A stretch of DNA of 64,000 bases, taken from the NCBI RefSeq assembly GCF_045037415.1, contig NZ_CP173438.1; one strand, 5' to 3'. The position numbers and the translations under genes were made by a program. The stretch comes from Escherichia coli. Its GTDB lineage: Bacteria; Pseudomonadota; Gammaproteobacteria; Enterobacterales; Enterobacteriaceae. How positions within the stretch are numbered: the stretch's first letter is position 1; the number at the start of each line of letters is the position of its first letter. Below are positions 7,238 through 7,837 of the stretch, in pieces. The notes beneath the pieces were generated by a model, which saw only the letters and a list, made by a program, of their open reading frames with translations, made no database searches and was not told the origin of the DNA.

Positions 7238-7837
7238 ATGCGTAAATTATGTGCTGTTATTTTGTCCGCAGTAGTCTGGCAGGTCGCCGCTGCTACGCCA
7301 GCGAGTGCAGCAGAACATCAGTCCACGCTGAGCGCGGGGTATCTCCATGCCTCGACGAACGTTCCCGGTAGTGATGATCTGAACGGGATTAACGTGAAAT
7401 ACCGTTATGAGTTTACGGACGCGCTGGGGCTGATTACGTCCTTCAGTTATGCCAATGCTGAGGATGAGCAAAAAACGCGCTACAGCGATACCCGCTGGCA
7501 TGAAGATTCCGTGCGTAACCGCTGGTTCAGCGTGATGGCGGGGCCGTCTGTACGCGTGAATGAATGGTTCAGCGCGTATGCGATGGCGGGTGTGGCTTAC
7601 AGCCGTGTGTCGACTTTCTCCGGGGATTATCTCCGCGTAACTGACAACAAGGGGAAAACGCACGATGTGCTGACCGGAAGTGATGACGGTCGCCACAGCA
7701 ACACGTCTCTGGCGTGGGGGGCTGGCGTGCAGTTTAACCCGACCGAATCCGTGACCATTGACCTTGCTTATGAAGGTTCCGGTAGTGGCGACTGGCGAAC
7801 GGATGCATTTATTGTTGGTATCGGATACCGTTTCTGA
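7238..7837 (+). CDS. lom: Lom-like outer membrane protein (Ail/Lom family)
   Basis: 199 aa; N-terminal signal peptide; beta-barrel-like alternating pattern ending in IGYRF; lambda-like position between J and stf. Confidence 0.85.
   Translation: MRKLCAVILSAVVWQVAAATPASAAEHQSTLSAGYLHASTNVPGSDDLNGINVKYRYEFTDALGLITSFSYANAEDEQKTRYSDTRWHEDSVRNRWFSVMAGPSVRVNEWFSAYAMAGVAYSRVSTFSGDYLRVTDNKGKTHDVLTGSDDGRHSNTSLAWGAGVQFNPTESVTIDLAYEGSGSGDWRTDAFIVGIGYRF

Follow-up and report, generated by a model that had tools for sequence, protein, structure and literature searches.

lom of a lambda-like Escherichia coli prophage: an intact Ail/Lom-family gene flanked by conserved intrinsic terminators

The gene lom has been known to lie between the tail-tip gene J and the side tail fibre gene stf since lambda was sequenced. 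Serum resistance is a property of Ail and Rck, and adhesion to buccal cells has been reported for lambda Lom in work cited in two later papers (PMC11888456; PMC3594210). Morons, as defined for HK97 and HK022 (Juhala et al., 2000, summarised in PMC3594210), carry a promoter and a terminator of their own and differ from the surrounding genes in GC content. Lambda lom is listed among the few genes expressed from the prophage (PMC7067206; PMC3594210; PMC11888456), and work cited in PMC11888456 describes it as prophage-expressed with a strong rise late in infection. Expression of the Phi24B lom is similar in lysogens and induced cells (PMC3342100). One microarray study of a lambda lysogen left lom undetected, and the lom promoter is poorly characterised (PMC2147009); no mapped lom promoter was found in our literature search. 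In 2025, overexpressed lambda Lom was reported to block lambda-vir, not T7, and an anti-adsorption or superinfection-exclusion role was proposed, with the authors stating that Lom at lysogen levels does not block lambda-vir (PMC11888456).

The lom gene described here is the single copy in a stretch of 64,000 nucleotides of E. coli DNA (RefSeq assembly GCF_045037415.1, contig NZ_CP173438.1; "the window"). The best overall explanation, which we hold with high confidence, is that it is the intact lom of a lambda-like prophage, insulated by terminators and probably expressed mostly by late read-through. The features of the locus, all on the + strand, are as follows.

3697–7170, + strand: tail-tip gene J, a pseudogene with two frameshifts (tblastn, PGAP annotation, Pfam)
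7189–7216, + strand: intrinsic terminator between J and lom (consensus scan, fold, compensatory changes)
7227–7232, + strand: Shine-Dalgarno sequence GAGAGG, 5 nt ahead of the lom ATG (read from the sequence; invariant in 15 aligned loci including lambda)
7238–7837, + strand: lom coding sequence (PF06316, PDB and Foldseek matches, AlphaFold model, dN/dS)
7238–7309, + strand: predicted Sec signal peptide, residues 1–24 (translation read by eye, AlphaFold model)
7869–7877, + strand: putative extended -10-like motif TGtTATGAT (lenient promoter scan, comparison of variants)
7878–7912, + strand: second hairpin (13 pairs, one bulge) with only UUUG after it (fold of 7838–7987; kept in long-spacer variants)
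7941–7976, + strand: intrinsic terminator after lom (consensus scan, fold, invariance)
7988–11014, + strand: side tail fibre gene stf (Pfam phage_tail_N, E = 5.6e-70; fibre repeats and collar; PGAP annotation)

The lom reading frame begins with ATG and encodes 199 amino acids plus a stop codon. Its original prediction as a Lom/Ail-family outer-membrane protein gene agrees with the profile and structural comparisons. The Pfam model Ail_Lom (PF06316) matches residues 1–199 of 199 with 414.4 bits (cut-off 23; E = 9.2e-125), the OMP_b-brl model also matches (E = 4e-21), and PHROG_108 ("Lom outer membrane protein") matches over the full length (E = 1.9e-106). Among PDB sequences, lambda Lom (9wso, chain C) is the best match (E = 3e-47), with OmpX and Yersinia Ail next; our literature search found no papers citing 9wso. 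An AlphaFold (AF2) model, built on an alignment of 12 sequences, has a mean pLDDT of 85.4; in it, eight long strands come after an N-terminal helix. The top Foldseek matches to this model are Ail (3QRA/3QRC) and OmpX (1QJ9), with E-values of about 1e-17 and target-normalised TM scores of 0.80–0.86, in a structural ranking without lambda Lom because 9wso is absent from the library. Beta-barrel features of an outer-membrane protein were thus looked for by both profile and structure, and they are present. The gene is an intact, ordinary member of the Ail/Lom family, and its product is predicted to be an eight-stranded outer-membrane beta-barrel like Ail and OmpX.

An aromatic C-terminus is typical of outer-membrane barrels, and the translated product ends in GYRF, with Phe as the aromatic last residue. 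The N-terminus reads MRK, then a hydrophobic core, then A-S-A ahead of AEHQ; in the model, residues 2–18 form a helix, confidence is low over residues 14–25, and the first strand begins at residue 29. From family knowledge, the A-S-A cleavage site before AEHQ and the C-terminal Phe, the protein would be exported via Sec and inserted into the outer membrane via BAM. Three other reading frames that overlap this region, an antisense frame of 197 aa (7247–7840) and two small ones (7758–7916, + strand; 7895–8152, - strand), were set aside as shadow ORFs, having no Pfam match above threshold.

Compared with lambda lom (NP_040601; 9wso chain C), the window gene belongs to the same family (PF06316/PHROG_108), occupies the same position between J and stf, and shares the C-terminal block YEGSGSGDWRTD..GY(K/R)F, although the two proteins are only 41.5% identical in amino acids, differ in length (199 residues in the window, 206 in lambda), and the first loop is shorter in the window protein. 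A much closer relative is Lom of VT1-Sakai (E. coli O157, BAB19561), a type present in many Stx and ECOR lambdoid phages. The two proteins are 97% identical and the J-lom spacers do not differ; in the VT1-Sakai record J is likewise truncated by mutation. VT1-Sakai differs from the window in having a short, lambda-type spacer between lom and stf and a YKF C-terminus. Yersinia Ail, Salmonella Rck and PagC, and E. coli OmpX (3QRA, 1QJ9) share the fold of the window protein (TM 0.80–0.86) at about 30% identity, with sequence E-values of 1e-18 to 1e-19 for the Ail/OmpX group; they differ in that the strand pairs projecting beyond the barrel are longer in the window protein, and in that their genes are chromosomal or plasmid-borne whereas lom is phage-borne.

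The family resemblance does not carry a phenotype with it. The NCBIfam equivalog cut-off is what justifies the transfer of serum-resistance or OmpX function, and the lom product scores below it for both Rck (NF011777; 116.4 bits, cut-off 258) and OmpX (NF006917; 100.7 bits, cut-off 176). Because of these scores and the 41.5% identity to lambda Lom, the adhesion or serum resistance that had been associated with the gene in the original prediction cannot be transferred with confidence, and no phenotype (adhesion, serum resistance or phage exclusion) can be assigned to this lom allele from sequence alone. A surface-exposed Lom would be expected to alter the cell surface, with adhesion and/or interference with the adsorption of lambda-like phages as the possible effects.

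The placement of lom between J and stf is confirmed by the Pfam domains of both flanking genes. The 5' neighbour is the C-terminal part of J, which ends at 7170 and contains four J-specific domains (two Ig-like, one tail-tip and one C-terminal receptor-binding), and the gene order J-lom-stf also occurs in lambda and 10 other phage loci. The further claim that rho-independent terminators bracket the gene holds as well. A consensus scan of a 2-kb region places sites with a hairpin and T-run at 7189–7208 and 7941–7970, on either side of lom; the scan total of four terminator-like sites, against 2.1 ± 1.7 in shuffled sequences, is not significant by itself, but both terminators are individually strong, the upstream one covaries, and the layout is that of lambda. 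The upstream terminator has an 8-bp GC-rich stem (7189–7196 with 7201–7208) and a GAAA loop, followed by TTTTTTATT; it folds at -15.7 kcal/mol (z = -4.2), and none of 200 shuffles folds as well. About 24 nt, with the ribosome binding site among them, lie between the end of its T-run and the lom ATG. A sigma-54-like reading across this terminator (TGGCGCC-N-TTGCA) was rejected because its GG and GC stand 3 nt too far apart.

The J-lom spacer was aligned across 15 loci (the window, 10 phages, three other E. coli prophages and lambda). Over the 13 distinct related sequences, pairing in the upstream stem holds in 93% of cells, and three of its eight pairs show double, compensatory changes, namely G-C to A-U at one pair in four sequences, C-G to U-A at another in three, and A-U to U-A at a third. 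The covariation score was reached by none of 500 shuffles, and sliding the partners against each other drops the pairing to 38–62%. Given the compensatory changes, unmatched by shuffles, and the collapse of pairing on sliding, the comparison argues that the J-lom hairpin is under structural selection.

The downstream terminator has a 12-bp stem (7941–7952 with 7959–7970) and a T-run at 7968–7973, shortly before the stf ATG at 7988. It folds at -20.5 kcal/mol (z = -3.5), again better than all 200 shuffles, and its stem is invariant in seven spacer variants. The start of stf therefore shares the design of the lom start, a terminator followed by a ribosome binding site. Lambda likewise has a hairpin plus T-run before lom, a strong terminator after it and the same GAGAGG ribosome binding site. 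It differs in the strength of the upstream hairpin, the lambda centroid of about -8 kcal/mol being much weaker than that of the window, and lambda and the Stx phages carry an unrelated GC hairpin plus T-run at the place of the downstream terminator. The terminator bracketing of lom is real, conserved and classic.

The same anatomy is less favourable to the claim that lom is a self-contained moron expressed in the lysogen, for which the downstream terminator speaks, while the GC content does not agree and the promoter scans and the expression of a close proxy give it no clear backing. Like the morons of HK97 and HK022, lom is a non-structural gene in a tail operon with a 3' terminator, but unlike them it has neither a recognisable promoter of its own nor a GC deviation (54.8% for lom, 56.7% for J, 54.5% for stf and 54.9% for the prophage part of the window). 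A consensus scan found no sigma-70-like promoter on the + strand upstream of lom. The best site in a lenient scan is TATAAC at 7175–7180, with a -35 element matching at 3/6; the motif TTATAAC (7174–7180), just past the J stop, is conserved in all loci of the window type and could be a weak -10 element that gives lom its own promoter. However, transcription from that site would at once meet the strong J-lom terminator. A non-consensus or activator-dependent lom promoter may also exist.

A proxy for expression in a lysogen is available from prophage PP6 of the enteropathogenic E. coli (EPEC) strain E2348/69, in which the locus has the same spacers and is 95.6% identical over the whole of a 951-bp query (window 7100–8050, comprising lom, both spacers and the adjoining gene ends). 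In published RNA-seq data, the BaseMean of the EPEC lom (E2348C_1438) is 2.0 under activating and 0.34 under non-activating conditions, counts that multi-copy mapping could depress, compared with 15.0 and 6.7 for J and 7.0 and 5.3 for stf, so that lom is lower than both of its silent neighbours. Since the mapping of reads to multiple copies may depress them, the near-zero lom counts are better taken as a caution than as a refutation of lysogen expression.

It is possible, if somewhat short of likely, that lom is nevertheless a classic moron, an autonomous unit with its own promoter that is expressed from the repressed prophage, confers adhesion or serum resistance, and has its transcript ended by the downstream terminator. 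The listing of lambda lom among prophage-expressed genes, the similar expression of the Phi24B lom in lysogens and induced cells, the strength of the downstream terminator, the conserved TTATAAC and the purifying selection on the coding sequence (see below) are all consistent with such a unit, whereas the lack of a sigma-70 promoter, the position of TATAAC right before a terminator, a GC content equal to that of the neighbours, the EPEC counts, the lambda lysogen microarray and the sub-cut-off Rck and OmpX scores speak against it. The label "lysogen-expressed moron" is an attribute of lambda lom and is not demonstrated by this sequence.

Under the preferred explanation, late read-through, most lom transcription would come from a Q-antiterminated late transcript that ignores both terminators. 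This origin is probable because the gap from the upstream terminator to the lom ATG appears too short for a promoter and contains no promoter consensus. While the prophage is repressed, both lom and stf would be shielded by the two terminators, and any expression would be weak and driven by an unmapped promoter. Seen as a gene of the late operon that is insulated by terminators, read through by Q antitermination and possibly able to block adsorption, lom is explained equally well as it is by the moron reading.

What a late gene of this kind might do is suggested by the recent work on lambda, and T5 Llp offers a comparison. Lom could serve the phage rather than the host by blocking the adsorption of lambda-like phages to infected or lysing cells, as superinfection exclusion or as protection of the progeny, a role that we regard as tentative and on the doubtful side. 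It would agree with the strong defence that overexpressed lambda Lom gives against lambda-vir but not T7 and with the late rise in lom expression (PMC11888456), with the place of lom inside the tail operon, adjoining the receptor-binding genes J and stf, and with the terminator-then-RBS junctions on both sides, which point to a dependence on antiterminated read-through. On the other hand, the experiment was an overexpression of lambda Lom, which is 41.5% identical to the window protein; lysogen levels do not block lambda-vir (PMC11888456); no PADLOC defence-system model matches the lom product; and with J broken, this prophage makes no progeny to protect. As an account of the anatomy, terminator-insulated and poor in promoters, the anti-adsorption reading fits at least as well as lysogenic conversion.

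The state of J bears on the late-expression readings. A tblastn search with intact J matches residues 7–292 in frame 1, 283–470 in frame 3 and 467–1157 again in frame 1, so that two frameshifts, with breaks near 4545–4572 and 5095–5105, compensate each other; between them, about 188 codons are read in the other frame, and over this stretch seven stops interrupt the original frame. PGAP flags J as frameshifted (a pseudogene) in a genome with an identical locus. Two frameshifts in J make it probable that the prophage is defective; lom itself is intact, as are its ribosome binding site and both terminators. A prophage with a J pseudogene may never run its late programme, which would make late read-through expression of lom moot in this host.

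In a decaying prophage, lom could be a relic that is intact merely because too little time has passed to break it. The two frameshifts in J and the near absence of lom reads in the EPEC proxy agree with this, but we consider it very unlikely, given the intact lom frame, ribosome binding site and terminators, the identical sequence in many genomes and the selection seen among alleles, though the last does not necessarily extend to this lineage. Pairwise dN/dS for the mature region of lom ranges from 0.15 to 0.27 against eight alleles, which indicates that lom alleles are under purifying selection. Among 5426 complete E. coli genomes, 1349 contain 80% or more of the 951-bp query; the match reaches at least 99% in 843 records, and many complete E. 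coli chromosomes are 100% identical. At an identical locus, PGAP annotates gpJ (frameshifted), an "Ail/Lom family outer membrane beta-barrel protein" (WP_001228314.1) and a tail fibre. The original prediction had presented lom as known biology, as both this annotation and the shared layout with lambda bear out; the locus is already known and annotated in hundreds of genomes, and there is no novelty in it.

The gene is mosaic at both ends (7238–7309 and 7797–7837), from which recombination junctions inside lom can be deduced. The signal-peptide codons fall into two very different types, with a dS of 0.69–0.92 against 0.05–0.33 for the mature part in comparisons with alleles of the other type. 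Over the last ~40–100 nt, a YRF end goes with a long lom-stf spacer and a YKF end with a short one; the different C-terminus and spacer of VT1-Sakai place a recombination junction in this part of the gene.

The spacer between lom and stf is of two types, 59–64 nt (64 nt in lambda; also most Stx phages) and 150 nt, the latter carried by this locus, P-EibA, PhiR5_1, PhiR49_2 and EPEC PP6. Of 5426 complete E. coli genomes, 1649 (~30%) carry the 150-nt spacer, which is never annotated. In E. coli AHB30 (NZ_OZ547086.1, 880–1060), the long spacer directly follows a degraded J-like pseudogene with no lom, and only the 11-nt junction ACCGTTTCTGA is kept; since AHB30 has the spacer without lom, the long spacer travels with stf and not with lom.

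The long spacer might encode a small RNA of about 90–100 nt that has the 7941–7976 terminator as its 3' end and arises either from a promoter of its own, at the extended -10-like motif, or by processing of the lom 3'UTR. In its favour, no other + strand site in 6900–7990 resembles a promoter as closely as TGtTATGAT, with TGnTATAAT or TGnTATGAT kept in six of seven spacer variants; the spacer (7838–7987) folds at -49.8 kcal/mol, better than shuffles (z = -3.3), and ends in a GC hairpin plus U-run; and it is 86 nt longer than the lambda type yet unannotated in the many genomes that carry it. Against this, a start about 7 nt past the -10 motif falls within the 7878–7912 hairpin and destroys its lower stem, the sub-region without the terminator (7838–7940) is not unusually stable (z = -1.2), and the variants are too similar to reveal covariation. 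No Rfam family reached threshold at the lom locus, in a search of 6500–8500 at a permissive E-value and of the whole window at the gathering score; the sole match there was at chance level, the terminator against a Burkholderia sRNA model (E = 0.36). Published RNA-seq and RIL-seq tables for EPEC also list no RNA from the lom-stf intergenic region. Such an RNA is therefore unlikely. We also consider improbable the broader proposal in which the unannotated spacer gives rise to an sRNA or 3'UTR-derived RNA (~90–100 nt), or acts as a regulatory 3'UTR, and the covarying hairpin upstream of lom acts as a regulated attenuator or a 5' stabiliser. If that hairpin were an attenuator or stabiliser, lom expression would be conditional and not constitutive.

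RNAs described elsewhere were considered and rejected as counterparts. The microRNA-size RNA 24B_1 of Phi24B has been described downstream of a lom gene (PMC4426718), but its flanking sequence is absent from the window, and the Phi24B lom differs in its C-terminus and context. The sRNA svsR of prophage NC-SV is encoded at the 3' end of cI, away from lom (PMC12803456). Among the EPEC Pas sRNAs, PasB lies on the opposite strand in the gap between I and J, and not in the lom-stf spacer.

The I-J gap of the window (343 nt, 3354–3696) contains a 25-nt exact match to the PasB terminator at 3361–3385 on the - strand. The Hfq-dependent PasB of EPEC E2348/69 maps to the same gap, and its 5' part is unmatched in the window; judging from this match, the minus strand of the gap may harbour a variant PasB-like sRNA locus. 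Another strong hairpin lies in the gap near 3560–3600.

Several other features of the window lie beyond lom. Between stf and the tail-fibre assembly gene, positions 11011–11913 (+ strand) encode a 300-aa macro-domain protein (Pfam Macro, E = 5.9e-19; PHROG_2613, unknown function), whose start overlaps the stf stop and whose GC content, 45.6%, falls below the ~55% of the tail genes. A tail-fibre module is an unusual place for an ADP-ribose-binding or hydrolase domain. An Rfam match to IS009 (RF02111, 218 bits) is located at 12265–12463 (+ strand), within the tail-fibre assembly gene and in its 3' half. A low-GC patch (~31–33%) at the edge of the prophage, adjoining chromosomal yecD and aspS, holds a reverse transcriptase of the defence-associated class UG17 (12619–13995, - strand; PADLOC RT_UG17, E = 8e-159) that is overlapped by a SLATT-domain partner (13967–14671, - strand; RTasSLATT, E = 2e-57). 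Outside the prophage, Rfam matches at gathering level identify chromosomal RNAs at 44870–45014 and 60502–60962, the SraC/RyeA and SdsR/RyeB sRNA pair and the cspA thermoregulator.

The outcome for lom is a shift of emphasis, in that the sequence supports a lom gene flanked by conserved terminators and not a self-contained, lysogen-expressed virulence moron. An answer to where its promoter lies would help to decide whether Lom serves the host, through lysogenic conversion, or the phage, through late anti-adsorption.
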